Of a stretch of DNA of 64,000 bases, positions 9,865 through 24,379 are shown in pieces. Every line of letters begins with the position of its first letter. Within the stretch, counting starts at the first letter, position 1. The stretch spans positions 64,001 to 128,000 of the forward strand of contig SCQK01000013.1 in NCBI GenBank assembly GCA_004321885.1. The letters run 5' to 3'. The DNA comes from Patescibacteria group bacterium. GTDB lineage: Bacteria > Patescibacteriota > Patescibacteriia > Magasanikbacterales > GWA2-37-8. A program made the translations under genes and the position numbers. A model generated the notes under the pieces. The model saw only the letters and a list, made by a program, of their open reading frames with translations. It was not told the DNA's origin and ran no database searches.

Positions 9865-9908
9865 GATAAAAGTATAGCATTTTTGCAGTATTTTGCAAAT
9901 TTTTGTCT

Positions 9909-10229
9909 TTAATCAATTTTTCTCACAATTCCCTTCTCCGCGTCCACCTCCACCATATCGCCATTTTTAATCTTCCACAAAATTTCTTCCGAAAGACCGA
10001 CAATCGCCGGTTTGTTATTTTCGCGCGCCACAATAGCCGCGTGAGAAGTTACCCCGCCATGCACTGCCAAAATCGCCTTCACTTTTTTAGCCAGCGCCGC
10101 GTTTGGTTTGACTTGATTCAATAACACAATATTCTCTTCCGTGCAATGAGCAAATTGGTCAGTATGATTAATAATACAAACCAGCCCGCTCGCCTTGCCG
10201 GGACAAGCAGAAATTCCTTTGAATTGCAT
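9909..10229 (-). CDS. Stand-alone PEP-utilizing enzyme mobile (phosphohistidine swivel) domain protein
   Basis: HGGVTSHAAIVARENNKPAIVGL ... GDMVEVDAEKGIVRKI; 106 aa, only the PF00391-type swivel domain. Confidence 0.8.
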   Translation of the reverse strand: MQFKGISACPGKASGLVCIINHTDQFAHCTEENIVLLNQVKPNAALAKKVKAILAVHGGVTSHAAIVARENNKPAIVGLSEEILWKIKNGDMVEVDAEKGIVRKID

Positions 10230-10275
10230 AAATTATAAATAATGGCTTTGTTCTGCCATTATTTTACTCTTACTC

Positions 10276-10304
10276 TTGACAAAAGTCAAAAAATGTGCTA
10301 TATT
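10276..10304 (+). promoter_or_regulatory. Sigma70-type promoter TTGACA-N17-TATATT upstream of the high-GC histidine-phosphatase gene
   Basis: ttgaca (10276-10281), 17-nt spacer, tatatt (10299-10304). About 190-nt AT-rich leader, then RBS AGGAGAG and ATG at 10493. Confidence 0.55.
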
Positions 10305-10492
10305 GTTTTGTTGTGGTTTATTGGAAAATTGCGCTTTATTGCGCTATTTTCCGGCTATAACGTGAGTGTGTTGTTTTTTGAAAATTTGAGGTTTCTTTGG
10401 CCAGAAGTTGAATGCGTAATGCGAATATCTTTTGTTCGTAATGCGCAGTCAACTTCCACGCCCCACCGATGGGGCACACCAAGGAGAGGAAG

Positions 10493-11140
10493 ATGAAGAC
10501 CACGGTGCTGTTCACGAGGCACGAGGACCACAAAGACCAGGTCCTCCTGCCGGACGCGGTCGAGAGAGCGCGCATGCGCGGTCTGCGCCTGCGTGAGAAG
10601 GACTACAAGATCGACCGGGTCAAGGGCTCGCCCCTGCCCCGCGCCGATGCCACCGCCACCGAGATGATGACCGGCTACGGCCAGACCACGGACATCGAGC
10701 GCGAGGCGCGCCTCGGCGACTTCAAATCCGATCCAAGGACGCCGAAGGAGGCGGTGAAGGAGCTCAAGGCGAACGCGGTGGCCAAGCACGGGGATGACTC
10801 CGACTCCAACTTGGCCAAGGAGCTCATCAACACCCCCGCCCTGCACGACCTCCTCTTCGCCCGCGCGAAGGAAGGCGCCGAGGCCCTGCTGGAGATGGCC
10901 GCCGCCAACCCGGGCAAGACCATCCTGGCCGTGAGCCACGGCGTGGCCCGCATGGAGATCGTCCTGCGCTACCTGCGGGGCGTCCGCGACACCGCGCTCC
11001 TGGACATCGTCCCGGAGCTCATCGACCGCGGCGAGGTCATCAAGCTGACCTTCGAGGTCTCGGAAGAGTGGGACGACCTCGCCGAGACGCACCCGGCGCG
11101 GGCCGAGTTCGTCTCGGCCGAGCCCCTCCCGCTCCTCTAA
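10493..11140 (+). CDS. Histidine phosphatase superfamily (phosphoglycerate-mutase-like) protein encoded in a high-GC islet
   Basis: LFTRHEDH (RHG-type motif) near the N-terminus and ILAVSHGVARMEIVL (second catalytic His). RBS ccAAGGAGAGgaagATG. Local GC about 65% against about 40% background; the minus-strand 290-aa ORF is an antisense artefact. Confidence 0.65.
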   Translation: MKTTVLFTRHEDHKDQVLLPDAVERARMRGLRLREKDYKIDRVKGSPLPRADATATEMMTGYGQTTDIEREARLGDFKSDPRTPKEAVKELKANAVAKHGDDSDSNLAKELINTPALHDLLFARAKEGAEALLEMAAANPGKTILAVSHGVARMEIVLRYLRGVRDTALLDIVPELIDRGEVIKLTFEVSEEWDDLAETHPARAEFVSAEPLPLL

Positions 11141-11262
11141 CCCCCCATCTCGCCCGCGTTCCGCGGGCAACTCCAAACACAACTCACTGACACGGCGGTA
11201 CGCATCGCGCGACCGCCCAACTCTCAATGCTTTTCAACGAAAAACATTGAGCGTTACAAAAA

Positions 11263-11293
11263 ATCCTTCGCGTTTACGAAGGATTTTTTGTTT
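11263..11293 (+). terminator. Rho-independent terminator after the high-GC gene: ATCCTTCGCGTTTACGAAGGAT plus T-run
   Basis: Perfect stem TCCTTCG/CGAAGGA followed by TTTTTTGTTTCT. Confidence 0.7.
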
Positions 11294-11319
11294 CTCAATT
11301 TTAATACCAGCGCGCTATT

Positions 11320-12828
11320 TCAAATTCTCCTCACCACCCCTTTATACCCATCCACCTCCAACCAATCCCCATCTTTCACCACCTCGCGCACAAACCTGGT
11401 TTGTATTACTCCCGGAATTTTGGCTTCCCGCGCAAGCGTGGCCGGGTGCGTCGTAATACCATGCCCGCCATCGCAAACCAAACCTGCCGCTTTCATAATA
11501 GCTGTGGAGAAACTGGGTACCACTTGAATACTGACGATAATATCTCCCTTCTGCACTTTATCGCATTCATCGGGATGCAAAATTACACGCGCTGGCCCCT
11601 TGGCGACTCCGGGCGAAACCGGCATACCGGTAAACTCTTTAGCGTTCTTATCTACTTTACAGAAAAGATTAAACAATCTTTCGGCCTGACTTCTCTCAAC
11701 TATCTTCATTGGCTGTCCGCGCCGACAATACCACAACATCAGTTCTATCCTTTCGTTAATATCAAAAGATAATTCTTTTCCTTTGATCAAAGCCGTTCTT
11801 ATCTCTTCTATTTTTAAGTGCCTGACCTGATTCAGACTCAAATAGAATCTGCGGCCAATCTCTTTCAAAACGCTATCAAAATAATACAAAGATTCGGAAA
11901 CGTAGCGCTTGCGCAATTCTTTCAAGTAAGCCACATGGCGCATGGAATTGAAAGAATCTTGTTCTTGCTTGCTGAAGTTCAATCTGGCCAAATATCTCTT
12001 TCTTTCGCTTTCATTTTTAGCCAAGTTACCGACCAATTTCTCATATTCCTTCCTCACATTGAGTATGAGATAGCCGGTCAAACGTTGAACTATCGATCTA
12101 AAATCCAAAACGGAGTCTTCGTAATCACGCGTTACCCAAAAATAATTTCTTTCATGCTTCCTTATAAGATTACTAAGTTTAGAATCTTTTTTAATGGCGT
12201 CTATATCTTTGGTTGTGACCAGAGAAACCCAATGTTTATCGGCTAAAATCCTTAACGCCAATTCAAACAACGCCTTCAATTCAACAGTCGCCACCATGGC
12301 GCTGGGTTCGCGCGTTAAAATGTCCAAAACTACCGCGGCCTTCCTTTTGTCCGCCACTTTGCCTTCCACCATACGTAGCAGGTCGGCGATATAATGGTCT
12401 TCCGTAATCCAAATCCATCCGTACCGAGCGTACACCTCTTTGTATTTTTTTTCATAATCAGCGAAAAATTCGTACAATGTCTGATTGCTTATTCTTTCTA
12501 AATTAGAATTGCCTGCTTTCTTGGCAAAAGCCACTAAACGCGCACCGTAGATATGCTGTTCTTTAATGAACTTGCCGACCAATTTTGAATCATAATGAAT
12601 TTTATCGGACATGTCGCGAGCAACCTCTTCGTAACCCTTCCTACCAATAAACATGTAGTGTACGTTATGCGTGCAAAAATAAAGTACCTCTCCGAGGGCA
12701 AAGCCGACGGCACTTTTCATCTCATTGCAGACAGCCTCCATTGAAAAATAATTAGGAAACGGACTGACGCGTTGGCGTTGAGACTTAAATACCCAGTGGT
12801 CGATATCCGTTGAAAATTTAACTGGCAT
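11320..12828 (-). CDS. Paralog 1: unknown N-terminal domain (about 390 aa) fused to a C-terminal PEP-utilizing swivel domain (variant His loop)
   Basis: C-terminus MPVSPGVAKGPARVILHPDECDKVQKGDIIVSIQVVPSFSTAIMKAAGLVCDGGHGITTHPATLAREAKIPGVIQT...GDWLEVDGYKGVVRRI aligns with the other paralogs. N-terminus has no PPDK_N motifs. Confidence 0.7.
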   Translation of the reverse strand: MPVKFSTDIDHWVFKSQRQRVSPFPNYFSMEAVCNEMKSAVGFALGEVLYFCTHNVHYMFIGRKGYEEVARDMSDKIHYDSKLVGKFIKEQHIYGARLVAFAKKAGNSNLERISNQTLYEFFADYEKKYKEVYARYGWIWITEDHYIADLLRMVEGKVADKRKAAVVLDILTREPSAMVATVELKALFELALRILADKHWVSLVTTKDIDAIKKDSKLSNLIRKHERNYFWVTRDYEDSVLDFRSIVQRLTGYLILNVRKEYEKLVGNLAKNESERKRYLARLNFSKQEQDSFNSMRHVAYLKELRKRYVSESLYYFDSVLKEIGRRFYLSLNQVRHLKIEEIRTALIKGKELSFDINERIELMLWYCRRGQPMKIVERSQAERLFNLFCKVDKNAKEFTGMPVSPGVAKGPARVILHPDECDKVQKGDIIVSIQVVPSFSTAIMKAAGLVCDGGHGITTHPATLAREAKIPGVIQTRFVREVVKDGDWLEVDGYKGVVRRI

Positions 12829-12858
12829 AATTAACTGATAAAAATTTATTCAATTCTT

Positions 12859-14082
12859 TTAAATTTTTCTCACAATCCCTTTCTCCGCGTCCACCTCCAC
12901 CATATCGCCGTCTTTTAAAACCTTAGTCGCGATTTTCGTGCCGATAATACAAGGTATACCTAACTCACGGCTGACGATGGCAGCATGCGCGGTTAACCCT
13001 CCCTCGTCGGTCACGATAGCGGCCGCCTTTTTGACCGCCGTTATCAACGACGGCGTGGTCATGGATGAAACTAAAATATCACCCTTCTGCATCTTGACCT
13101 GATCTTCCCGCGTGATAACAATTTTGACCTTGCCGCGCACCTTTCCCTTGGATGCCACGAAGCCAATAATTTTATCCACCACCGCTGTTTTGTCTTCTTC
13201 AAAATAAAGCTTAAAATAATTCTGCGCCTTTTCGCCGCTTAAAATTTTTAATTTTCTCCGGCTGATCAGCAATATATAAAATTGTTGGCGGCGTTTCATT
13301 TCGCTTTCGGGCATTTTCTTGCCACCCAAATAATCGCGCAAGCTGACCGGATCGTACCAATCCAATTCAGCCAATTCTTTTTCGTTGTTGATGACCTTTC
13401 GCAAATGATCTAATAGCTGATCGTAAAGATAAGACGACACTCTTTCCCCCATTTCGTAAAAGTAAGTGAACCATGATAAAATTTCCGCAAGCTCTTTTTC
13501 TTTGGCGGTTAATTTTAGCCGTCGTGCAAGATCCTCTCTTTTTCTAATCAATCGCGGACTAGAACAATGCAATTGGTTTAATAGCCCGACAACCGCTTTC
13601 GGCACTGATAAAGTTGATAAGACATCGTCCAGCTCGCGCGCCGATACTTTCGCCGCCAGTAATTTTTTCAGCCGCTGTGCAACAGACTGCTCACCCCAGT
13701 AGCTATAGACAATAGCGCCACGCCCATAAGCGTGATATTTCATGAACAAACTGATGTAACTCCTCAAATCTTTGCGGGTCAAATTTTTATTCTCGTACTT
13801 TCTGCCCCAGTTATAACCTTGGATTAGCAACTTAACTATAATGTCACCCAAACGAGAAATATTTTTCCCTTTAAATTCTCGCAGAATAATTTTCTGCTGT
13901 CTTTTTTTGTCCGCGGGGTCAAAGTATAACGAGGTAACTCTGCCGCGGCCGACAATCGGACTTCTGGCTATTTTCGCCCGCCCAAATTTACCAATGCTCT
14001 GCGCATAAGCAATGGTGCGAAATCCGCGATCAAGCAAAGTATTTTCACGTGTTAATTGTTTGACGTATTTGACTTTGGACAT
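12859..14082 (-). CDS. Paralog 2: unknown N-terminal domain (about 300 aa) plus C-terminal PEP-utilizing swivel domain
   Basis: ...GKVKIVITREDQVKMQKGDILVSSMTTPSLITAVKKAAAIVTDEGGLTAHAAIVSRELGIPCIIGTKIATKVLKDGDMVEVDAEKGIVRKI. Confidence 0.75.
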   Translation of the reverse strand: MSKVKYVKQLTRENTLLDRGFRTIAYAQSIGKFGRAKIARSPIVGRGRVTSLYFDPADKKRQQKIILREFKGKNISRLGDIIVKLLIQGYNWGRKYENKNLTRKDLRSYISLFMKYHAYGRGAIVYSYWGEQSVAQRLKKLLAAKVSARELDDVLSTLSVPKAVVGLLNQLHCSSPRLIRKREDLARRLKLTAKEKELAEILSWFTYFYEMGERVSSYLYDQLLDHLRKVINNEKELAELDWYDPVSLRDYLGGKKMPESEMKRRQQFYILLISRRKLKILSGEKAQNYFKLYFEEDKTAVVDKIIGFVASKGKVRGKVKIVITREDQVKMQKGDILVSSMTTPSLITAVKKAAAIVTDEGGLTAHAAIVSRELGIPCIIGTKIATKVLKDGDMVEVDAEKGIVRKI

Positions 14083-14239
14083 AAATTAAAGCTTCCCCAT
14101 AACCCCCTTTAATATAGAACCCCGAAATTTGACAAATAACGTGCACATGTTATACTGATTATGGAATTGATACCGCTTCAAATAGTCCCGTTTATCGGGG
14201 CGTCCCGCAAGGGTAAGGAGCGGTATTTTTGTTTTACTC

Positions 14240-14869
14240 CTATTTCGGCCATCTTTGCACCCAAATCTCTTTGTCTGCCACGTATTTATAATAATTCGTC
14301 CAATCCTTTTTATTTTGAACTTTTCTGCTGACAACGCCGGTGATGTAATCAGCTACCTGCAGCAAATTATTTGATTTTGAACGCTGTTGTTTTAATTTTT
14401 TTATAACTTTCTTCCCGTTCGTATTTAACCGAACGCGCAAATATTTGGCAAGACGGCTGCGAAAATCCGGCGAACCTGACTTATCAAGTATTACTGTGGC
14501 GTTATTCAAATGCGGAAGCGCGTTGTTAAAAACCATCTGGCAGGCGTATTTGTAAAACGATTCTTTGGTGATAAAACCTGGCCCCCACAATTTATTTGGG
14601 TCTTTGTCTATCACGACTGCGAAGTATATAAAGCGATACGGCTGGATGGCCGATAAAAATCTTTCTTTTATCTTATCCGAATTAAAAGAAAAATGAAATT
14701 CAAAATCGGACGGCAAATCAAGCTCTTTTCGCAATAAATTAATCCGTTGGTCGCAAGATAGGGCGTCTTCATTGTCATCAAAAATAACCAAAGAAATTAT
14801 AAAATATCTGCTGGAACCGGATTCTGTTTTACGGCCGGTATCGCCGGCTTCATCTATAAAGACGAGCAT
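14240..14869 (-). CDS. DUF3800 family protein
   Basis: MLVFIDEAGDTG... start and LLQVADYITGVV motif are characteristic of DUF3800; it sits inside the paralog array. Confidence 0.6.
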   Translation of the reverse strand: MLVFIDEAGDTGRKTESGSSRYFIISLVIFDDNEDALSCDQRINLLRKELDLPSDFEFHFSFNSDKIKERFLSAIQPYRFIYFAVVIDKDPNKLWGPGFITKESFYKYACQMVFNNALPHLNNATVILDKSGSPDFRSRLAKYLRVRLNTNGKKVIKKLKQQRSKSNNLLQVADYITGVVSRKVQNKKDWTNYYKYVADKEIWVQRWPK

Positions 14870-14879
14870 AACTGTTAAT

Positions 14880-16361
14880 TCAAATTTTCTTCACAATCCC
14901 CTTTGTCGCATCCACTTCCACCATGTCGCCGTCTCTGAAAACCTTAGTGGCGATTTTCGTGCCAATCACGCAGGGAATACCGAGTTCGCGCGAGACGATA
15001 GCCGCATGGCAGACAATGCCGCCCATATCAGTAACTATCGCCGACGCCTTTTTCATGGCCGCCACGATTTCCGGTATGGTCATTTCCGAAACCAACACAT
15101 TTCCACTTACCATTTTTTTCATATCCTCTATGGTATTTACAATCGTTACTTTCCCTTTGGCCGCGCCCGGAACCGCGGTTTGCCCCCGCAGTTCTTGAAC
15201 TGATAAATCCACTTCTTCCTCACGAGCCATATTCATTTTTGACATTACGTATCTCGCTTCTTCGCCAACAATAAACTTGGATCCATTGGCGTCCACATAT
15301 AGTAAACTATATTTCCAACGTTCATTTAATTCATCCGCGTCGCACTGCCCGCTTCTAATCGCAGAAGGAACTTCTTGTGGCAAAAAATATCGCGCTTGAC
15401 GAATTGAAATAAGCAATCTTTTTGCTACTTCCCGCAGTATTTTATCAAGCGCATAAAATCCTAAAAATTGGTGCTCTTTGCTCCATGCCTTTTGATAAAC
15501 AAGGTCTTTGGTAACGCGAAATAAATGCTTGTGTTTTTCATCAATTTTTAAATTATCAAACCAGGCGTTTTGTTTTTTTTCAGCTTCAAAAAACTGATTT
15601 TTCTGACGCAAAATTTCTTGCTCAATATCGGTCCCAGCTTCTATAATCTCCTGAATATGCTTTACCACATCCTTCTCTGTCCAAGTCGGCCCTTCACAGG
15701 CAAAGGGCAAAAAACAATACTTCCGCGCATGCGCCGCAATTTTTTCCTCCCCAACGGATAATTGAATTTTGCCTTCCACAACTTCCTTCGCCAGCTCATA
15801 AAGTTCCAAATGTTCCTGTGTACCCAAAGCCGGCTTTGTCAGCGTGAGTAAATCAGCCAAAACAAGAACGGCATCTATATCAGGATTAAACTTTTTTAAA
15901 TAGTTCAATAAATATATTCCTAATTGTTCAAACGGAATTTCCAAAAGCCAACTCGGAACACGATATAAGTGTAATTCCGTCTGTAACGGCAACAGTTGTT
16001 CGTAAATTCGCGCGAGTTCTTCGTTGGATAACTTTGATAAATCACTCTCAATAATTTTCCAGGCATAATTTCTAAGCTGCGGTAAAATTTTATCTGATTT
16101 TACATGCATATCATCAATGAGCCGGGGATTTTCCACAATTGCTTCTAAAGTTTTTTTACCGGCCACTATCCATTCATTGCGAATATAGAATAACTTTGTC
16201 GCGCCGTTTTCATACAAAGGAAGGCTGTGTGCCACATCGGCAAGCCCCAGCTTGCTCAATTCGCTTGTCATGGCGCGAAAAGGCGGCTCCAATGTAATGG
16301 GAGGATACTGATACAACTTCTCAATCATTATCCATTCTTTTCTTAACAATTCTTCATTCAT
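14880..16361 (-). CDS. Paralog 3: unknown N-terminal domain (about 390 aa) plus C-terminal PEP-utilizing swivel domain
   Basis: ...GAAKGKVTIVNTIEDMKKMVSGNVLVSEMTIPEIVAAMKKASAIVTDMGGIVCHAAIVSRELGIPCVIGTKIATKVFRDGDMVEVDATKGIVKKI; 4-nt overlap with paralog 4. Confidence 0.75.
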   Translation of the reverse strand: MNEELLRKEWIMIEKLYQYPPITLEPPFRAMTSELSKLGLADVAHSLPLYENGATKLFYIRNEWIVAGKKTLEAIVENPRLIDDMHVKSDKILPQLRNYAWKIIESDLSKLSNEELARIYEQLLPLQTELHLYRVPSWLLEIPFEQLGIYLLNYLKKFNPDIDAVLVLADLLTLTKPALGTQEHLELYELAKEVVEGKIQLSVGEEKIAAHARKYCFLPFACEGPTWTEKDVVKHIQEIIEAGTDIEQEILRQKNQFFEAEKKQNAWFDNLKIDEKHKHLFRVTKDLVYQKAWSKEHQFLGFYALDKILREVAKRLLISIRQARYFLPQEVPSAIRSGQCDADELNERWKYSLLYVDANGSKFIVGEEARYVMSKMNMAREEEVDLSVQELRGQTAVPGAAKGKVTIVNTIEDMKKMVSGNVLVSEMTIPEIVAAMKKASAIVTDMGGIVCHAAIVSRELGIPCVIGTKIATKVFRDGDMVEVDATKGIVKKI

Positions 16362-17836
16362 ATTTTTCTCACAACCCCACTTGTCGCGTCAACCTTCACC
16401 ATATCGCCGTCTTTGAGTACGGAAGTGATTTTTTTCACGCCCACCACGCAGGGAATTTTAAATTCGCGCGCCACAATGGCCGCATGGCAAGTGATGCCGC
16501 CGTCCTCCGTCACGATAGCCGAGGCGCGTTTCATAGCCGGCAACATCGCCGGATAAGTCGTGAGCGCCAACATAATATCTCCTTTTTCCACCTTATCCGC
16601 GTCTGTTAACGATAGAACAACTTTTACTTTGCCTGAAACAAAACCCGGATACGCGGTGGCGCCCTTAAATCCGTCTTCAACATTTAATTTTATTTCTTCA
16701 ATATCCAAGCCGGCTATAATCGCGTCGGCCTCTTTGCCGTAATAATACTTTGTTCCGCTTTCAGTCGCTTCAATCACGCAATGCTTAATTCTCTCATTTA
16801 TTAAATCAATGTCCAATTTGTCACGCAATAGAGCGTTTTCCATTTCGTCCGTCAAAAAATGATTCGCTTGTTTATGCGATATATTCAATCGCTTGGCAAT
16901 TTCTTTGGTGAGCATGTCCAAAACATAGTGCCCATGCCAAATACAATATTTTCTGAGATCCTTAAGCCAAATAATCTCGCGGGCGATGGCGAACAATCGC
17001 GCGAGCTGCGGGGGCAAGTTGATTTCGGAAATTACTTTATTTTGTTCCGCGATGAGTTTCTCGTAGCGTTCTTTTTCTTCTTTGAGCATTTGGTCCGGGT
17101 CAGTTACGCGAGGCAGGGCTTCCTTAACCTGCTCTTCATAATATTTCAAATCATAAGCCGGCCCGATATAGCCGTATGGCGTCCAGCGCCATTTTTGCCA
17201 ATGCTTTGTTATTAATTCTTTGTACTGGATTCCCGCTTTCGCGGGAATGACAACGGCCTTAAGCAACTCCAAAAAATCCAATTGCTCCAACTGGACAAAA
17301 TTCTGTTTAGCCGGAGTGGTAAGCAGAACAAAATATTCTATTGTTTTTACCGGATCATCTATGCCTAAACTTTTTAAATGTTCTCCTAATTTTTGCTTTA
17401 AATACTCCGAAAAAATCATGCCGTCGCTGTCCACAAACCAAGTGGTGGCGATTGATGGAAGATGACCTTGCTCGGTAAGCCATAAAAGCGTTTTGTAGTA
17501 ATCAAAAAGCTCGGCATTGTTTAGCGCGCCAAAATCTTTTCCCACCAAACTTTGAGCGTAATTAAAATAATCCCAATTTAATTTTTCGGTTCGCGCATGC
17601 AATTCCTCTGCCCACTGCGGCTCGGTAATAATTTTTTCCGCAATCCATTTCACCGTCGTTTCTATTACTTCAACCGGCACATACGCCGTATCCCTGTCGT
17701 TTCTATAATCTTGATACCAAACAGTAAATAATTGTTTGCCATTCTTTTTTGGAATATGCGCAAAAATCCCTTGGGGGTAATAGCCCAGCATGTTAAAATT
17801 CACGTCGCGGATATCAAAATTTATTCGCCATTTCAT
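16358..17836 (-). CDS. Paralog 4: unknown N-terminal domain (about 390 aa) plus C-terminal PEP-utilizing swivel domain
   Basis: ...ATAYPGFVSGKVKVVLSLTDADKVEKGDIMLALTTYPAMLPAMKRASAIVTEDGGITCHAAIVAREFKIPCVVGVKKITSVLKDGDMVKVDATSGVVRKI. Confidence 0.75.
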   Translation of the reverse strand: MKWRINFDIRDVNFNMLGYYPQGIFAHIPKKNGKQLFTVWYQDYRNDRDTAYVPVEVIETTVKWIAEKIITEPQWAEELHARTEKLNWDYFNYAQSLVGKDFGALNNAELFDYYKTLLWLTEQGHLPSIATTWFVDSDGMIFSEYLKQKLGEHLKSLGIDDPVKTIEYFVLLTTPAKQNFVQLEQLDFLELLKAVVIPAKAGIQYKELITKHWQKWRWTPYGYIGPAYDLKYYEEQVKEALPRVTDPDQMLKEEKERYEKLIAEQNKVISEINLPPQLARLFAIAREIIWLKDLRKYCIWHGHYVLDMLTKEIAKRLNISHKQANHFLTDEMENALLRDKLDIDLINERIKHCVIEATESGTKYYYGKEADAIIAGLDIEEIKLNVEDGFKGATAYPGFVSGKVKVVLSLTDADKVEKGDIMLALTTYPAMLPAMKRASAIVTEDGGITCHAAIVAREFKIPCVVGVKKITSVLKDGDMVKVDATSGVVRKI

Positions 17837-19004: not shown

Positions 19005-20186
19005 TCAAGCAATCACTCCCCCGCCCAAACATTCACCTTTAAGATAAAATACCGCGAACTGACCCGGGGTGACGGCGCGTTGGGGGTGAGTGAAAGTAAC
19101 TAAAGGGAGGGAAACAGTGCATCTCTGCAAAGGTTGACGGTGACGCAGGCGCACCTGGCATTTTAGCGGGAAATTGGGTGTGTTTCCACTTATCCAATTT
19201 ACGTCTTTGACCCTTGCTTCCATACTGTACAGCATATCGCTTTTCTCGTCGCCGACAATCAGTTCGTTCTTTTTTATATTCTTACCGACAACAAAGAGAG
19301 GCAACGCGCTGGATTCCCCCGTACTTAGTCGGGGGAATGACAAACTGATACGTTGGCCGATGGTGTAAAACGCCAGGCCATCGTGCTGGCCCACGACTTT
19401 ACCCCTCTCTCGCCACCGCCGCGAGGCGGGGCCCCGCCGTGGCGGTGGCTCTCCCCTTGTAAAGGGGAGAGAGAGCACTATGTTCCCGGGTTTGAATTTT
19501 ATCTTTTTCATCAAAAATTCTTTCATCGGCACTTCGCCGATGAAACAAATGCCCATGCTTTCTTCTTTTTCCGCCGTGGGCAAGCCGAATTTTTTTGCCA
19601 GGGCGCGCACCTGTGGTTTGGCATACTCACCGATGGGAAACAAAACGTGGCGCAGTTGTGCTTGAGATAATTGATTCAAAAAATATGTTTGGTCTTTATT
19701 GAGATCTTTTGACTGCAAGAGGTGCAGAACCCCACCCCCCTTTCGTTCCCCCTTTATTAAGGGAGGAAGAAACGCGTAGTGTCCAGTCGCTAATTTATCA
19801 AACCCTAACGCACGGGCTTTATCCAGCCAGGCGCCAAACTTGATGAATTTATTGCACAAAACATCCGGATTGGGCGTGCGGCCGGCCTTGTACTCGCTAT
19901 ACATGTAATCCAAAACATCGCGCTTGTATTTGCGCGTAAAATCCAGCTTCAAAAGTTTAATGCCCAGTTTGGCGGCCACGCGCAAGGCGTCGCGATAATC
20001 GCCGGTCCAACAGCGCGATCCCACCCCCCCTTCGCCCCCCCCTCTGGCATGAGGGGATATTTTCTCATCATAGTTCACCATGAACGCGCCGCTTACGTTA
20101 TATCCTTGCTTAACCAAAAGAGCGGCGGCAACGGACGAATCCACGCCGCCGGACATGGCGACTAAAATTTTTTGCTTTTTTTTCAT
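19005..20186 (-). CDS. mnmA: tRNA-specific 2-thiouridylase MnmA, carrying four in-frame palindromic-element inserts
   Basis: ILVAMSGGVDSSVAAALLVKQGYNV (PP-loop), GRTPNPDVLCN, NKDQTYFL, GLPTAEKEESMGICFIG. Non-homologous inserts ISPHARGGGEGGVGSR, PPLIKGERKGGGV, LPFTRGEPPPRRGPASRRWRERGKVVG and SLSFPRLSTGESSA map onto elements at 20022-20057, 19736-19776, 19395-19475 and 19311-19341. Confidence 0.85.
   Translation of the reverse strand: MKKKQKILVAMSGGVDSSVAAALLVKQGYNVSGAFMVNYDEKISPHARGGGEGGVGSRCWTGDYRDALRVAAKLGIKLLKLDFTRKYKRDVLDYMYSEYKAGRTPNPDVLCNKFIKFGAWLDKARALGFDKLATGHYAFLPPLIKGERKGGGVLHLLQSKDLNKDQTYFLNQLSQAQLRHVLFPIGEYAKPQVRALAKKFGLPTAEKEESMGICFIGEVPMKEFLMKKIKFKPGNIVLSLPFTRGEPPPRRGPASRRWRERGKVVGQHDGLAFYTIGQRISLSFPRLSTGESSALPLFVVGKNIKKNELIVGDEKSDMLYSMEARVKDVNWISGNTPNFPLKCQVRLRHRQPLQRCTVSLPLVTFTHPQRAVTPGQFAVFYLKGECLGGGVIA
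19311..19341. repeat. Palindromic element, family A (reverse orientation), in frame in mnmA
   Basis: ggattcccccgtacttagtcgggggaatgac is the reverse complement of the alaS copy. Confidence 0.7.
19395..19475. repeat. Compound palindromic element, family D type (…CTCTCCCCTTGTAAAGGGGAGAGAG), in frame in mnmA
   Basis: cccctctctcgccaccgccgcgaggcggggccccgccgtggcggtggctctccccttgtaaaggggagagagag; nested inverted repeats. Confidence 0.6.
19736..19776. repeat. Palindromic element, family D type (CCCCCTTTATTAAGGGAGG), in frame in mnmA
   Basis: ccacccccctttcgttccccctttattaagggaggaag. Confidence 0.55.
20022..20057. repeat. Poly-C/poly-G palindromic element in frame in mnmA
   Basis: cccaccccccccttcgccccccccctctggcatgagggg. 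Confidence 0.5.
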
Positions 20187-20200
20187 AACAATATAATACC

Positions 20201-20236
20201 ACACAAAACAAAAACTGCCAGCCTTGCGGCCGGCAG
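20201..20236 (-). terminator. Terminator hairpin CTGCCAGCCTTGCGGCCGGCAG with a minus-strand T-run, downstream of the zinc-ribbon gene
   Basis: Inverted repeat 20215-20236; RC of 20201-20214 is TTTTTGTTTTGTGT. Confidence 0.55.
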
Positions 20237-20253
20237 TTTCTTGTTTGCAGTAA

Positions 20254-20565
20254 TTACCTATCGCGCCTGGCCCGCAGACATTCTCTGCAGTAAACCGGCT
20301 TGTCGCCGGTGGGCTGGAAGGGCAACTCGGTGATCTTGCCTCCGCACTGGGCGCAGGTCAAGTCCACCTGGTACATCTGGCGCGGAGCGCCAAACGAGCG
20401 TCCGCCGCCGCTCGGGCGGGTCTGGCGGTACGCGCGATTGCATTCATTGCAATACACGGGTCTGTCGCCGGACGGCTGGAAGGGCAGCTGTGAAATATGG
20501 GTCCCGCATTTGCCGCAGGAAAGGTCCACATCGTACATCTGCCTAGTGCTGTTGTCAAAAGCCAT
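20254..20565 (-). CDS. Small tandem zinc-ribbon protein (two CxxC-x17-CxxC repeats) in a high-GC islet
   Basis: QMYDVDLSCGKCGTHISQLPFQPSGDRPVYCNECNR and QMYQVDLTCAQCGGKITELPFQPTGDKPVYCRECLR form an internal duplication. Local GC far above background. Confidence 0.55.
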   Translation of the reverse strand: MAFDNSTRQMYDVDLSCGKCGTHISQLPFQPSGDRPVYCNECNRAYRQTRPSGGGRSFGAPRQMYQVDLTCAQCGGKITELPFQPTGDKPVYCRECLRARRDR

Positions 20566-20881
20566 AACTTTGCTGTTTTTGTTCCCAAAATGTGTTTTGA
20601 GATTGTTTTAGTCGACCTATTTTGGGAACTTTGGCCGAAAACCGGCCTTTTTTAACGTTTCCAAAATTTGTTAAATTATATCACAAAAGCCTGATTTTGT
20701 CAATATCCCCCTAATTTTATCCACAACTATTCCACCAGGCGGCTATTGACAAAAAAACTTATTTGTGATACATATCTGGTATCTTACAATCAAGCCCGGA
20801 GAATGTTTGGCATAAGGAGAAGCGTCCCCTCCTTCGCTTCTTTCCTTTTGTCAAACATCTTCCGGGTTTTTTGTTTGCAGA

Positions 20882-20929: not shown

Positions 20930-20984
20930 GGGTCGGTAGTTCAACTGGTTAGAGCATCCCGACTGAGTCGGGAAAGTTGCGGGT
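20930..20984 (+). pseudogene. tRNA-Asp-like 5' fragment with the anticodon arm replaced by the palindrome TCCCGACTGAGTCGGGA, truncated in the T-stem by the GIY-YIG ORF
   Basis: GGGTCGGTAGTTCAACTGGTTAGAGCA is identical to positions 1-26 of the intact tRNA-Asp at 21251. Then the 17-nt palindrome, AAGTTGCGGGT, and the sequence diverges into ATGGAGG (start of the GIY-YIG ORF). Confidence 0.6.
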
Positions 20985-21245
20985 ATGGAGGTAATTTTAT
21001 ATTATATTTACAGTAAAAAACTGAATAAATACTACTTAGGAAAAACCAATGATTTGGAGCGACGTTTTATAGAGCATAATAACGGTGAAGAAATTTTTAC
21101 CAGAACTGGTATTCCATGGAAATTAGTTGGATTTATTAAAGCCAGCGCGAAGATAATTAGTAAATTAGAGTATAAACTAAAAAAAGCAAAAAATCCAAAA
21201 TACGTTTATTGGTATTTCAATCAACACGGAACTGTATTGGAATAA
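20985..21245 (+). CDS. Small GIY-YIG nuclease (COG2827/YhbQ-Slx1-like) nested in the tRNA-Asp locus
   Basis: MEVILYYIYSKKLNKYYLGKTNDLERRFIEHNNGEE... matches GIY-x10-YLG-x-T-NDLERR-x3-H-N of the GIY-YIG (URI) domain; 86 aa. Confidence 0.7.
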   Translation: MEVILYYIYSKKLNKYYLGKTNDLERRFIEHNNGEEIFTRTGIPWKLVGFIKASAKIISKLEYKLKKAKNPKYVYWYFNQHGTVLE

Positions 21246-21250
21246 TGAGC

Positions 21251-21324
21251 GGGTCGGTAGTTCAACTGGTTAGAGCACTGCCCTGTCACGGCAGAAGTTG
21301 CGGGTTCGAGTCCCGTCCGACCCG
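21251..21324 (+). tRNA. tRNA-Asp (anticodon GTC)
   Basis: GGGTCGG-TA-GTTC-AACTGGTTA-GAGC-A-CTGCC-CTGTCAC-GGCAG-AAGTT-GCGGG-TTCGAGT-CCCGT-CCGACCC-G. Cloverleaf with U33, A37, anticodon GUC. Confidence 0.85.
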
Positions 21325-21345
21325 CTTATTATTCCATCAAAGCAA

Positions 21346-21406
21346 GCTGGTTAGAGCATCCCGACTGAGTCGGGAAAGTTGCGGGTTCGAGTCCCGTCCG
21401 ACCCGC
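21346..21406 (+). pseudogene. tRNA-Asp-like 3' fragment (D-loop to 3' end) with a palindrome replacing the anticodon arm
   Basis: AGCTGGTTAGAGCA-TCCCGACTGAGTCGGGA-AAGTT-GCGGGTTCGAGTCCCGTCCGACCCGC; lacks acceptor and D-stem 5' strands. Together with the 20930 fragment it reconstructs one variant tRNA. Confidence 0.6.
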
Positions 21407-21412
21407 ATAAAA

Positions 21413-24379
21413 CTATTTAACCGAGAACAAAGTAAACCAGCCGAGCATCTCGTCAAAGGTTTTTTTGTCGCCAGAAATTTCTATGATGTTTTTGGATTTT
21501 TTGAAACCTTGGGGATAAAGCTCCATTAATTTTGTGCCGTCGGCGCGAGTATAAATTTTGGCCGGAATATTTTGCCATACAGTTGTGGTAGACGAACCGG
21601 ACAGAGAACCCCCGGTCGCCTCAGGCGACCTCGGGATGACAGCTGAGGCTATTATAAACCGGCTTAACTTATCGGCCGACTGAAAACGCACCACCTTGTC
21701 CCCGTGCTCCACTGTCCAGGCCGCCGGATATTGCAAAGTAAACCGCGCGAAAGAATCCTCGCTGTACAAACTCTTGGGCTGTTCGCTTTCCCGCTTGCGA
21801 ATCTCGGCCGCCAGCTGTTCCAGCTGCGTTTTCAATTTTCCGGTTTCTTCCACGATGGCTTTTTTCACGTTTTCGTTCACAATCTGATTATTGGGCTGGC
21901 AGGCGTAGCCGCCCAGCGTGGAAAGCAAACCCACCACGCCAAAAATCAACAACAATTTCGTAGCCGCCGCTATTTTTATAATGGCGCCTTTTTTGGCCGA
22001 AACTTTTTTCTCCAGCCCGGCCACCCGCTCGCGCGCCTTTAGCACCGTGTCCGGATTAAGCGAAATGCTGTCTATCCCCTCTTGCACCAAAAAATCGGCG
22101 AACTCGGGATAGTCAGAGGGCGCCTGACCGCAGATGCCCACCTTGCGTCCATACTTGTGCGCCGTGGAAATCACCTGTCGTATCAAAGTTTTTACGGCCT
22201 CGTTTCTTTCATCATACACATGGCTCACCAAAGCGCTGTCGCGATCAACACCTAGGGTCAACTGGGTTAAATCGTTGGAGCCGATGCTAAAGCCGTCAAA
22301 AATCTGGCTGTACTCTTTGGCCAAAATCACGTTGGAAGGAATCTCGCACATCACGTAAACTTTCAAGCCAGACCCCTCACTAACTCTCCCCTTATAAAGG
22401 GGGGAGGAGCTTCCTCGCTCCAATCCGAATTCTTTCATCACAGCCAGCACCTTTTTTCCCTCGGCCACGGTGCGGCAAAACGGCACCATCACGATTATAT
22501 TTTTCAGCCCCCACTCTTCACGCGCCATTTTCAATGCCGCGCATTCCAGCCTAAAACCGGGCTTGTAGGCCGGGTCATAATAGCGCGAAGCCCCGCGCCA
22601 GCCCAGCATGGGGTTTTCTTCTTTGGGCTCGTACAAATGCCCGCCGATAAGCGTGGCGTATTCATTGGTTTTGAAATCAGACAAGCGCACAATAACATCG
22701 CGCGGATAATACGCGGCCGCGATAAAAGCGATGCCCTCGGCCAGCTTGTCCACGCAGTACCGGGCCTTGTCTTTGTAGCCGATGGTCAGCTCGTCAATTT
22801 TGGCTTTCAATTCCCGGTCCGCCAATTTTTTGTAATTTACCAAAGCGAGCGGATGGATTTTTATAAAATTGGTGAAAATAAATTCCTCGCGCGCCAGGCC
22901 CACGCCGTCACTGGGGATATGCGACAAAGCAAAAGCGCTGCCCGGGTCGCCCACGTTCATCATTATTTTGGTGCGGGTTTTGGCAATGGCTTTTATTTCC
23001 TGTTTTTCTATTTCAAAAGGCAGGCGCCCTTTGTACACATAACCGGCCTCGCCCTCGGCGCAGGAAACAGTCACTTCCTGCCCGGGCTTCACAATCTGAC
23101 GCGCCCTGGCCGCGCCCACCAGGCACGGCGTGCCCAGCTCGCGGCTGACAATAGCCGCGTGCGAGGTCTTTCCCCCCTGCTCCGTGACAATGGCCGAGGC
23201 AATGCGCATTATCGGCTCCCAATCCGGGTCCGTAATGCGCGTAATCAAAACTTCGCCTGGCCGAAAGCTCTTCATCTGCCTGGGCGAGTTTATTACCCGC
23301 GCTTTGCCCTGACCGATTTTTTGCCCGATGCTGATTCCCTCCACCAAAACTTTGCCTTTTTGTTTCAAATGGTACTGCTCTATTACATTTATATTGTCGC
23401 GCGAACGCACTGTTTCGCTGCGCGCCTGCACGATATAGAGTTTTCCGCTCCGTCCGTCTTTGGCCCACTCTATATCCATGGGCCGCTGGTAATGCTCTTC
23501 TATTTGCATGCCCCACTTGGCCAGTTGCAAGACTTCGTCCGGGGAAACGCAGAACCGGTGCTGGTCCGGCATTTTTACTGTTTCCTGCCTGGTGCCTGTT
23601 TTTCCGTAAACAAGTTTTACTTCTTTGCTCCCCAGCCGCTTGCTGATGATTGATTTCAATCCGCGCCGAACCCCATCTTTGAAAACAAAAAACTGGTCCG
23701 GTATCACCCGGCCCTTGACCACATATTCGCCCAAGCCATAAGCCGCGTTTATAAGCACCACGCCCTTAAAACCCGACTCGGTGTCCAGAGTGAACATCAC
23801 GCCGCTGGCGCCCAAATCCGAACGCACCATTTCCTGCACGCAAACCGAAAGCGCCACAGCCGCGTGGTCAAAGCCCTTGTCCACGCGATAGGAAATGGCG
23901 CGGTCCGTAAAAAGAGAAGCAATACATTTCTGGCAGGCTAAAATAAGTTCATCGGCGCCGACGACATTCAAATAGGTTTCCTGCTGGCCGGCAAAACTGG
24001 CGTCGGGCAAATCCTCGGCCGTGGCCGACGAACGCACGGCCACTGAACTCTTGCCCAATTCTTTATACGCCGCTTTCAATTCATCTGCTATTATTCCTGG
24101 AAACTCGGCGCTTAAAACCATCTGGCGAATCTTGGCGCCGGCCGCGGCCAGCGATTTCACGTTTTTGCCGTCGGTCTTGTTTAGAATTTCTTTTATTTTT
24201 TTATCCAATTTGTCCTCACGCAAAAAAAGCCGGTAGGCGTCGGCAGTAAGAGCGAACCCGTTTGGCACGGCCACTCCATTGGCAGTCAAATTATTATACA
24301 TCTCGCCCAGCGACGCGGTCTTGCCGCCCACGCTGGGAATGTCTTTGATGCCGAGTTCCTTAAACCAGCGGATATACAT
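21413..24379 (-). CDS. PEP synthase / pyruvate-phosphate-dikinase-like enzyme (PPDK_N + swivel His domain + PEP-utilizing TIM-barrel) with an about 200-aa C-terminal extension containing a TM helix; one in-frame palindromic insert
   Basis: VGGKTASLGEM, VRSSATAEDLPDASFAGQQETYLN, GGKTSHAAIVSRELGTPCLVG, MCEIPSNVILAKEYSQIFDGFSIGSNDLTQLTLGVDRDS, RKVGICGQAPSDYPEFADFLVQEGIDSISL. Then IIKIAAATKLLLIFGVVGLLSTLGGYA (TM) and a further 190 aa. Insert SPLYKGRVSEG comes from the element at 22373-22405. Confidence 0.8.
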   Translation of the reverse strand: MYIRWFKELGIKDIPSVGGKTASLGEMYNNLTANGVAVPNGFALTADAYRLFLREDKLDKKIKEILNKTDGKNVKSLAAAGAKIRQMVLSAEFPGIIADELKAAYKELGKSSVAVRSSATAEDLPDASFAGQQETYLNVVGADELILACQKCIASLFTDRAISYRVDKGFDHAAVALSVCVQEMVRSDLGASGVMFTLDTESGFKGVVLINAAYGLGEYVVKGRVIPDQFFVFKDGVRRGLKSIISKRLGSKEVKLVYGKTGTRQETVKMPDQHRFCVSPDEVLQLAKWGMQIEEHYQRPMDIEWAKDGRSGKLYIVQARSETVRSRDNINVIEQYHLKQKGKVLVEGISIGQKIGQGKARVINSPRQMKSFRPGEVLITRITDPDWEPIMRIASAIVTEQGGKTSHAAIVSRELGTPCLVGAARARQIVKPGQEVTVSCAEGEAGYVYKGRLPFEIEKQEIKAIAKTRTKIMMNVGDPGSAFALSHIPSDGVGLAREEFIFTNFIKIHPLALVNYKKLADRELKAKIDELTIGYKDKARYCVDKLAEGIAFIAAAYYPRDVIVRLSDFKTNEYATLIGGHLYEPKEENPMLGWRGASRYYDPAYKPGFRLECAALKMAREEWGLKNIIVMVPFCRTVAEGKKVLAVMKEFGLERGSSSPLYKGRVSEGSGLKVYVMCEIPSNVILAKEYSQIFDGFSIGSNDLTQLTLGVDRDSALVSHVYDERNEAVKTLIRQVISTAHKYGRKVGICGQAPSDYPEFADFLVQEGIDSISLNPDTVLKARERVAGLEKKVSAKKGAIIKIAAATKLLLIFGVVGLLSTLGGYACQPNNQIVNENVKKAIVEETGKLKTQLEQLAAEIRKRESEQPKSLYSEDSFARFTLQYPAAWTVEHGDKVVRFQSADKLSRFIIASAVIPRSPEATGGSLSGSSTTTVWQNIPAKIYTRADGTKLMELYPQGFKKSKNIIEISGDKKTFDEMLGWFTLFSVK
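22373..22405. repeat. Palindromic element, family D (reverse complement of 8143-8175), in frame in the PEP-synthase-like gene
   Basis: cccctcactaactctccccttataaagggggg. Confidence 0.7.

Follow-up and report, generated by a model that had tools for sequence, protein, structure and literature searches.

A conserved tandem zinc-finger gene of Magasanikbacteria-type Patescibacteria and its dedicated leader

The S15 and L20 leaders and the cspA 5′ untranslated region of bacteria, all under autogenous control, each precede a gene for a small, abundant, basic RNA-binding protein, and each is a structured leader dedicated to that gene and with alternative folds. Tandem mini zinc modules joined by flexible Arg/Gly-rich segments are found in the eukaryotic CNBP/ZCCHC nucleic-acid chaperones, with their zinc knuckles and RGG segments. 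Both invite comparison with a short gene on the minus strand of a 64,000-nucleotide (nt) stretch of Patescibacteria DNA (assembly GCA_004321885.1, contig SCQK01000013.1, positions 64,001–128,000; the whole stretch is called the window here), which encodes a 103-aa protein with two Cys4 fingers and is preceded by a ~100 nt transcribed leader. With S15, L20, and cspA the comparison is of a “works like” kind only; the window leader matches no Rfam leader (best E ~1.6) and binding of the leader by the protein is putative. With CNBP/ZCCHC it is an analogy only, the CCHC knuckles there being ~14 residues long and of unrelated fold and lineage.

The closest described relatives are the CxxC-x17-CxxC small proteins of Methanosarcina mazei (A00184 and A01980; PMC12704099), which belong to the same TIGR04272/PF23477 family, have the same Cys4 site, and are likewise small and readily detected. 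Two M. mazei members bind zinc as determined by inductively coupled plasma mass spectrometry, and Methanosarcina family members are among the highest-confidence detected small proteins (PMC12704099). They are however single-finger, x17, and archaeal, whereas the window protein has two fingers, an x18 spacer, an RG linker, a host in the Candidate Phyla Radiation (CPR), and a dedicated structured leader. The zinc-finger micro-proteins of Haloferax volcanii (C(P)XCG, HVO_2753), with regulatory or stress phenotypes, are also small, with one or two Cys4 fingers and no enzymatic domain (PMC6562870), but fall into other sequence families, and the window protein scores 15–16 bits with the NCBIfam HVO models, whose cut-offs are 70–90. 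Longer relatives in CPR and in DPANN/Thermoplasmatota (P0129, P0162, P0122, and P0247) have two to five of the same fingers, the (V/L)PF(K/R/Q)P...KPVYC core, and low-complexity basic segments; they differ in x17 spacing, long RGG/RS-rich N-termini, a helical segment, Lys-rich tails, unrelated neighborhoods, and the lack of the leader motif.

The open reading frame (ORF; 20254–20565, minus strand, ATG start and TAA stop) encodes a product of 11.6 kDa with an isoelectric point (pI) of 8.9 and 12 Arg residues, and there is little doubt that it is a real, expressed, and conserved zinc-finger gene of the PF23477/TIGR04272 family. An NCBI “hypothetical protein” from a Patescibacteria-group metagenome-assembled genome has exactly this sequence, and there are 374 homologs of ~100–110 aa at 63–77% identity. 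Among 28 aligned homologs 34 columns are invariant, all eight Cys included, with indels only in the linker. For wider comparisons, 80 related loci were taken from species-representative genomes. Comparing their 80 coding sequences gives a rate of difference of 25% at codon position 1, 19% at position 2, and 53% at position 3, and synonymous changes make up 56% of differing codons; this pattern marks the gene as protein-coding and subject to strong purifying selection, and an earlier note on this DNA was borne out in treating the ORF as translated. That note had named one finding that would overturn its proposal, namely that the region encodes no protein and is, for example, a structured RNA, in which case the ORF would be fortuitous. 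A GC-rich sequence with an internal repeat might in principle be structured, but the excess of third-position variation and of synonymous changes shows a coding region rather than a non-coding RNA, and the curated protein-domain matches (E ~1e-27), the 374 homologous proteins, in which length-preserving indels occur only in the linker, and the absence of an Rfam match all speak for a protein, so that the RNA alternative is scarcely credible.

The earlier note had described two near-identical units, each with two CxxC pairs, within 20201–20570, a range that takes in the terminator as well as the ORF. The two halves of the protein are indeed identical at 27 of 42 positions (64%; BLASTP E=6e-22), which bears out a Cys4 metal-binding module duplicated in tandem within one protein, and the duplication can be detected in the DNA as well (73% identity over 101 nt at an offset of 162 nt, or 54 codons; repeat family D7). 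The unit motif, with two CxxC pairs, is found exactly twice in the 64 kb in any frame, both times in this ORF. Finger 1 (20440–20517, minus strand) has the core C17-x2-C20-x18-C39-x2-C42 and the signature CGxHISQLPFQPSGDRPVYC, and finger 2 (20278–20355, minus strand) the core C71-x2-C74-x18-C93-x2-C96 and the signature ITELPFQPxGDKPVYC. They are joined by an Arg/Gly-rich disordered linker (residues 48–61; 20383–20424, minus strand) that falls in gapped, variable alignment columns and differs in length among homologs. In an AlphaFold2 (AF2) model, the predicted local distance difference test (pLDDT) score is ~80–85 for finger 1, ~83–90 for finger 2, and ~51 for the linker, dropping below 50 at residues 55–57.

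Profile searches place both fingers in Pfam PF23477 (zf_Tbcl_2; two copies, 93 bits against a cut-off of 27, E=8.6e-27) and NCBIfam TIGR04272 (CxxC-x17-CxxC; 94 bits against 36, E=3e-27). The x18 spacer in both fingers is one residue over the canonical x17 seen in P0129, and the hidden Markov model aligns end to end (1–37 of 37). The “zinc ribbon” label given earlier did not survive this comparison: all zinc-ribbon Pfam families fell below their cut-offs (PF08271 16.8 against 29, PF12773 15.8 against 27.3, PF13240 14.1 against 25), and in the AF2 model the second CxxC sits at the N-terminus of a helix, with this helix rather than a second hairpin following the second knuckle; a classical ribbon would have its two knuckles in beta-hairpins belonging to a three-stranded sheet. 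The predicted fold is thus a treble clef, with a zinc knuckle, a beta-hairpin, and the second ligand pair at the helix N-terminus. By homology to the zinc-binding Methanosarcina members, each finger would bind one Zn through its four Cys. Weak PDB profile matches to the C2H2 zinc fingers of PRDM9, ZNF568, and CTCF were rejected as spurious: the His pair is absent, the matches are based on a string (sGDRPVYCxxC) resembling the C2H2 linker TGEKPYxC, and no stretch passes alone in the best match.

The wider family, from an exhaustive profile search, comprises 2,760 representatives at 50% clustering (E <= 1e-3) and spans CPR bacteria, DPANN, Thermoplasmatota, and methanogens, the named long relatives being from Thermoplasmatota, Pacearchaeota, and unclassified archaea. 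Ten long representatives were scanned, and their only domains are finger repeats, in three to five copies, alongside Arg/Gly/Ser/Asp-rich (RGG/RS-rich) low-complexity segments and often Lys-rich tails. The wider family scanned offers no enzymatic partner that would give a more specific hint. A tblastn search of annotated phages and plasmids returned only three unannotated fragments of 34–44% identity, which are uninformative, and the literature on TIGR04272, PF23477, and Patescibacteria zinc-finger small proteins yielded nothing beyond PMC12704099. The x18, two-finger, CPR-specific protein is accordingly a new member of a known family without assigned function; the earlier “function unknown” is literally still so, zinc binding being the sole property demonstrated in the family (PMC12704099).

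The leader is found solely in front of the two-finger gene. Metagenome contigs were scanned motif-first with GGTCG-N10-28-TCTCAAA-N3-5-ATTTTGGGAA, giving 78 matches, of which 64 have a two-finger ORF within a few tens of bases on the 3′ side (60 of these ORFs complete, at 97–114 aa). Put another way, 64 of the 66 leader-like matches are followed by such an ORF, and the other two are cut by contig ends. The remaining 12 matches are of a chance type, in GC-rich contexts and without the AU-rich spacer and CAACAU loop. Some of these (the pairs L093/L154, L102/L110, L109/L133, and L115/L158) share near-identical GC-rich sequence at the match, and these are apparently conserved sequences of another kind, with no relation to the zinc-finger gene. 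There is exactly one two-finger gene per locus in ~1.08 Mb of related DNA.

In the window the leader runs from 20674 to 20566 on the minus strand, 109 nt from the −10 box to the ATG compared with ~90–170 nt among related loci, and has a folding z-score of −2.9. It contains four conserved blocks, an intervening hairpin, and an A-rich spacer. Block b1 (UUUUGGAAAC, consensus UUGGGYAAC; 20657–20666) lies right at the transcript's 5′ terminus and forms the 5′ arm of a stem-loop, SL1, which encloses a GC hairpin (GGCCGaaaacCGGCC in minus-strand reading; 20633–20647) whose sequence and length differ among loci. Block b2 (GUUCCCAAAAU, family form GUUCCCAAA; 20619–20629) can be either the 3′ arm of SL1 or the 5′ arm of an alternative long-range helix with b4. 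Block b3 (AGGUCGA; 20612–20618) includes a GUC that is invariant in the alignments and predicted to be single-stranded. The second stem-loop, SL2 (20581–20602), is composed of UCUCAAA (20602–20596), a 6 nt loop, and UUUGGGA (20589–20583) followed by AC, with its 3′ portion constituting b4 (20589–20581). The fourth element of the related leaders reads UCUCAAA-CAACAU-UUUGGGAAC, again with b4 as the 3′ portion, followed by ~15 nt of A-rich spacer; UUUGGGAAC occurs once in the whole window. Related leaders have unrelated GC-rich hairpins inserted between the blocks. Nothing in the region reached a gathering threshold in Rfam 15 (best scores 13–19 bits against thresholds of 39–90, E at least 1.6); this dedicated leader is absent from Rfam and from the literature searched.

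Pairing was counted in the register set by each arm's own conserved core. Whole-leader MAFFT alignments (A2 and A3) were discarded, with block 2 out of register and only four pairs recovered by RNAalifold, and because of this misregistration the core-anchored counts and a short MAFFT alignment of 42 leaders (A4) were used instead and no covariance model was built. SL2 is paired in all 58 leaders at six positions, with compensatory changes at one pair (CG:50, UA:5, UG:3) and another (UG:43, CG:12, UA:3). In A4, 98% of its cells are paired, two changes are double-sided, and there are seven additional pair types, values reached by only 5–11 of 500 shuffles. For b1:b2 (SL1, with a one-base bulge), core positions are paired in 84–100% of 57 leaders. 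Both hairpins are thus supported. The competing b2:b4 helix, of 9–11 bp, dominates thermodynamic predictions with a mean pairing probability of 0.66. It and SL1+SL2 are mutually exclusive, and their pairing probabilities switch together. The energy difference between the two folds in 55 leaders has a median of −0.9 kcal/mol and an interquartile range of −3.3 to +2.8; 26 of these leaders favor one fold and 19 the other, and in the model the balance barely shifts from 37 to 15°C. A switch between the two folds is a hypothesis.

The transcription signals around this unit are strong. A sigma-70 promoter at 20675–20703 (minus strand) has the −35 hexamer TTGACA (20703–20698), a 17 nt spacer ending in TGn (extended −10), and the −10 hexamer TATAAT (20680–20675), and is the only 12/12 match in 64 kb. 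A promoter of at least 10/12 is the best-scoring site within 260 nt upstream in 71 of 77 loci scanned, with a median of 126 nt from the end of the −10 to the ATG. On the 3′ side there is an intrinsic terminator (20210–20241, minus strand; folding free energy, dG, −25.8 kcal/mol) with a GC-rich stem, a GCAA loop, and a U-run. The earlier note was right about a strong terminator, but its “perfect” hairpin is near-perfect, the 9 bp GC-rich core including one G-U wobble and being extended by A-U pairs. A hairpin (dG <= −8) with a T-run lies within 90 nt 3′ of the gene in 76 of 78 loci, the best hairpins having a median dG of −18 kcal/mol. No AGGAG precedes the ATG, as noted previously; the start codon follows an A-rich, unstructured spacer (20566–20580, minus strand) without a Shine-Dalgarno (SD) sequence, and positions −15 to −1 average 50% A and 10% G over the 80 loci. 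Only 14 of 80 genes of this family and 11 of 57 neighboring mnmA genes have an SD match of at least 4 nt, so the missing SD is a lineage trait, and its absence was rejected as evidence against translation. The arrangement is that of a monocistronic, self-contained, and probably highly expressed unit, the signs of abundance being the sole 12/12 TG-extended promoter of the 64 kb and a preference for C-ending codons.

What the protein does can be proposed with less assurance. The earlier suggestion of nucleic-acid binding or regulation is still the most plausible role; low-complexity basic segments in the relatives, the pI of 8.9, and the 12 Arg residues are typical of nucleic-acid binders. Two independent Cys4 fingers and a flexible RG linker would make a bivalent binder or chaperone of nucleic acid, most likely RNA. 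The protein may limit its own synthesis by binding its own leader, where the repeated UUGGGAAC-type blocks would fold as SL1+SL2 or as b2:b4; because these are nearly equal in energy, binding would shift the equilibrium between them and so alter mRNA stability or translation. Composition and analogy make it quite possible, though somewhat short of an even chance, that the protein, made in abundance, binds nucleic acid (probably RNA) in a zinc-dependent manner and feeds back on its own leader, and the mechanism of RNA binding with autoregulation, modeled on autogenous ribosomal-protein and cold-shock genes, is put forward with similar reserve. A bolder version is more doubtful: an undescribed autoregulatory RNA-protein pair, in which the protein would be an abundant, lineage-specific RNA-binding factor in Magasanikbacteria-type CPR bacteria (a chaperone, or associated with translation or tRNA) and each finger would read one UUGGGAAC-type element, toggling the folds.

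Several points weigh against RNA-based feedback. Nucleic-acid binding is not directly evidenced for any PF23477/TIGR04272 member, and neither the ten long representatives nor the ~1.08 Mb of related loci yielded a fusion to any functionally characterized domain. The longer relatives of the protein, in unrelated neighborhoods, lack the leader motif upstream. Covariation in the leader is positive but limited, as the arms are highly conserved in sequence, and the two double-sided changes could represent few evolutionary events. For b2:b4 there is no compensation when b4 mutates and no excess over partner shuffles (431 of 500), for which reason it was dropped as a conserved helix and kept as an alternative fold only; the “switch” may therefore be a by-product of repeated sequence blocks. 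The conserved primary sequence could equally serve another trans factor, a DNA-level operator, or mRNA stabilization.

The operator version has some attractions. The protein would be a DNA-binding autorepressor or transcription factor, with the repeated 9-mers (TTGGG(N)AAC / GTTCCCAAA / TCTCAAA) as operators and b1 overlapping the transcription start; b1 does begin 9–17 nt after the −10 (about +1 to +10), the blocks read as DNA give four TTTGRGA-like sites in alternating orientation, and the Methanosarcina authors suggest that the domain family functions in transcription (PMC12704099). The spacing of the copies, from 4 to >60 nt with unrelated hairpins between, would however be unusual for operators, every block is 3′ of the −10 and hence in the transcript, and a change is offset by its pairing partner (in SL2, and in b1:b2 of locus L070), as in RNA helices, not across all four copies. 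It is considered unlikely, and about the same can be said of a model without feedback, in which the protein is a protein-binding or ribosome- or RNA polymerase-associated accessory subunit and the leader an expression element, with a 5′ stabilizing hairpin and an A-rich, SD-independent enhancer. Hairpins at the 5′ terminus protect mRNAs from 5′-end-dependent decay, and SL1 starts right where the transcript does; the conservation, small size, basic charge, strong promoter, and codon bias also resemble those of core machinery components. But a pure stabilizer needs structure, not four conserved sequence blocks and an invariant single-stranded GUC, and the near-isoenergetic alternative fold goes unexplained; nor does gene fusion point to a partner, the only conserved neighbors being mnmA, an HD-domain gene, and alaS. 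Less probable again is a sensing leader, i.e., a ligand or temperature switch (such as a riboswitch for Zn2+ or another metal, or an element responding to cold like that of cspA) controlling a zinc buffer or store. This would fit two mutually exclusive folds of similar energy, eight Cys in 103 residues of a zinc-binding family, and the many scan matches from groundwater metagenomes, Hainich and Rifle-type samples among them. The leader nevertheless resembles none of the riboswitches or thermometers in Rfam and shows no evident conserved multi-helix junction or pocket, its modeled energy balance is near-constant from 37 to 15°C, and the invariant non-Cys surface residues (HISQLPFQP, RPVYC, NRAFR) favor a specific macromolecular partner over metal storage.

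Should the protein bind its leader, the ligand class (RNA) and the recognition motif of the family would be defined together, and an autoregulatory pair would give PF23477/TIGR04272 its first function along with an RNA motif absent from Rfam. The domain is widespread and catalogued without assigned function, and the gene and its leader offer a direct way to test it. Given very high conservation and apparent high expression in minimal CPR genomes, the small protein likely serves core information processing in CPR.

The gene had also been taken for one of several compositionally anomalous islets with a donor lineage. It is GC-rich for the window (0.61 compared with 0.49), and its GC at third codon positions is 0.77 where other long ORFs have 0.58–0.59, as might be seen in a horizontally acquired gene. 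The anomaly stands as a matter of composition, but the islet and its donor do not: the gene is richer in GC than its flanks in 79 of 79 loci (median +10 points) across flank GC values of 0.29–0.57. Amino-acid composition alone, at window-average codon usage, predicts 57.8% GC (observed 61.8%, coding average 50.1%), and the residual is accounted for by a preference for C-ending codons (0.70 compared with 0.49 at two-fold NNY codons). Gene order is kept as well, with mnmA on the 3′ side and the same strand in 50 loci (adjacent in 33, with one gene between in 17) and the upstream neighbors also retained. From a GC excess that is universal and largely composition-driven and from this synteny, the gene is vertically inherited in Magasanikbacteria-type Patescibacteria, acquisition by transfer is highly improbable, and the GC “islet,” as a false lead, can be removed from the evidence for horizontal transfer. 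The lineages named for these loci are mostly Magasanikbacteria, with a few Falkowbacteria, Peribacteria, and Parcubacteria. Loci L004, L008, L013, and ~35 others are titled “uncultured Gammaproteobacteria bacterium” yet have the CPR-type gene and the same neighbors; from gene content and synteny, these titles look like a labeling artifact of the assemblies.

The HD-domain gene is the first downstream gene in 14 loci, followed by alaS or a DUF4153 membrane protein. The upstream neighbor is usually a PPDK_N-type phosphoenolpyruvate (PEP)-utilizing gene, as in the window, or a TrwB/VirD4-like ATPase. The position immediately upstream of mnmA reported earlier is correct: mnmA (tRNA 2-thiouridine synthase; 19005–20186, minus strand) is the next gene downstream, in the same orientation; it carries three tRNA_Me_trans Pfam domains and has its own transcript. 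It is apparently leaderless, a TG-extended −10 (TATTAT, 20198–20193, minus strand) ending 6 nt before its ATG (20186), and its −35 hexamer is part of the upstream terminator's 3′ arm. Of 57 related mnmA genes, 17 have a −10-like box 4–10 nt ahead of the ATG.

Short GC-rich palindromic repeat families (e.g., CTCCCCTTATAAAGGGGGGAG and TGTCATTCCCCCGACTAAGTCGGGGG) are dispersed in the window. They are found inside mnmA (19293–19337, 19389–19472, 19719–19772, and 20007–20060) and in a 988-aa PEP-utilizing enzyme (22361–22411), with further copies near 2725, 3406, 6029, 8143, 34081, and 55906. Several are in frame in housekeeping genes, adding Gly/Pro/Arg-rich peptides (PPLIKGERKGGG, SSSPLYKGRVSEGSG, and HARGGGEGGVGS); by eye, in an unaligned comparison, the inserted peptides are missing from the 368-aa mnmA homolog of locus L057. 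Rickettsia has similar palindromic elements inserted in frame, and some of the other “GC islets” may be explained by the repeats seen here. On the plus strand a tRNA-like gene is apparently split into a 5′ part (20930–20984) and a 3′ part (21347–21405) that have an identical 40-mer in common and flank a GIY-YIG endonuclease ORF (20985–21245) and an intact tRNA-Asp(GTC) (21251–21325). The body of the split copy is near-identical to tRNA-Asp, its anticodon arm (CCCGACTGAGTCGGG) resembles one of the palindromic repeats, and neither ARAGORN nor Rfam calls it as a tRNA.

Further away, at ~9900–16500 on the minus strand, there are five copies of 54 nt and 63 nt repeats (families D1/D4; at 9915, 11323, 12862, 14883, and 16361), whose spacing of 1.4–2.0 kb suggests a tandem array of paralogous genes. 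A 223-aa ORF on the plus strand (10469–11140), overlapped by a longer antisense ORF, includes the GC-richest stretch sampled (0.67 at 10501–10800) and is presumably another of the islets of the earlier note. A 502-aa ORF at 11320–12828 has a C-terminal motif resembling the mobile domain of PEP-utilizing enzymes.

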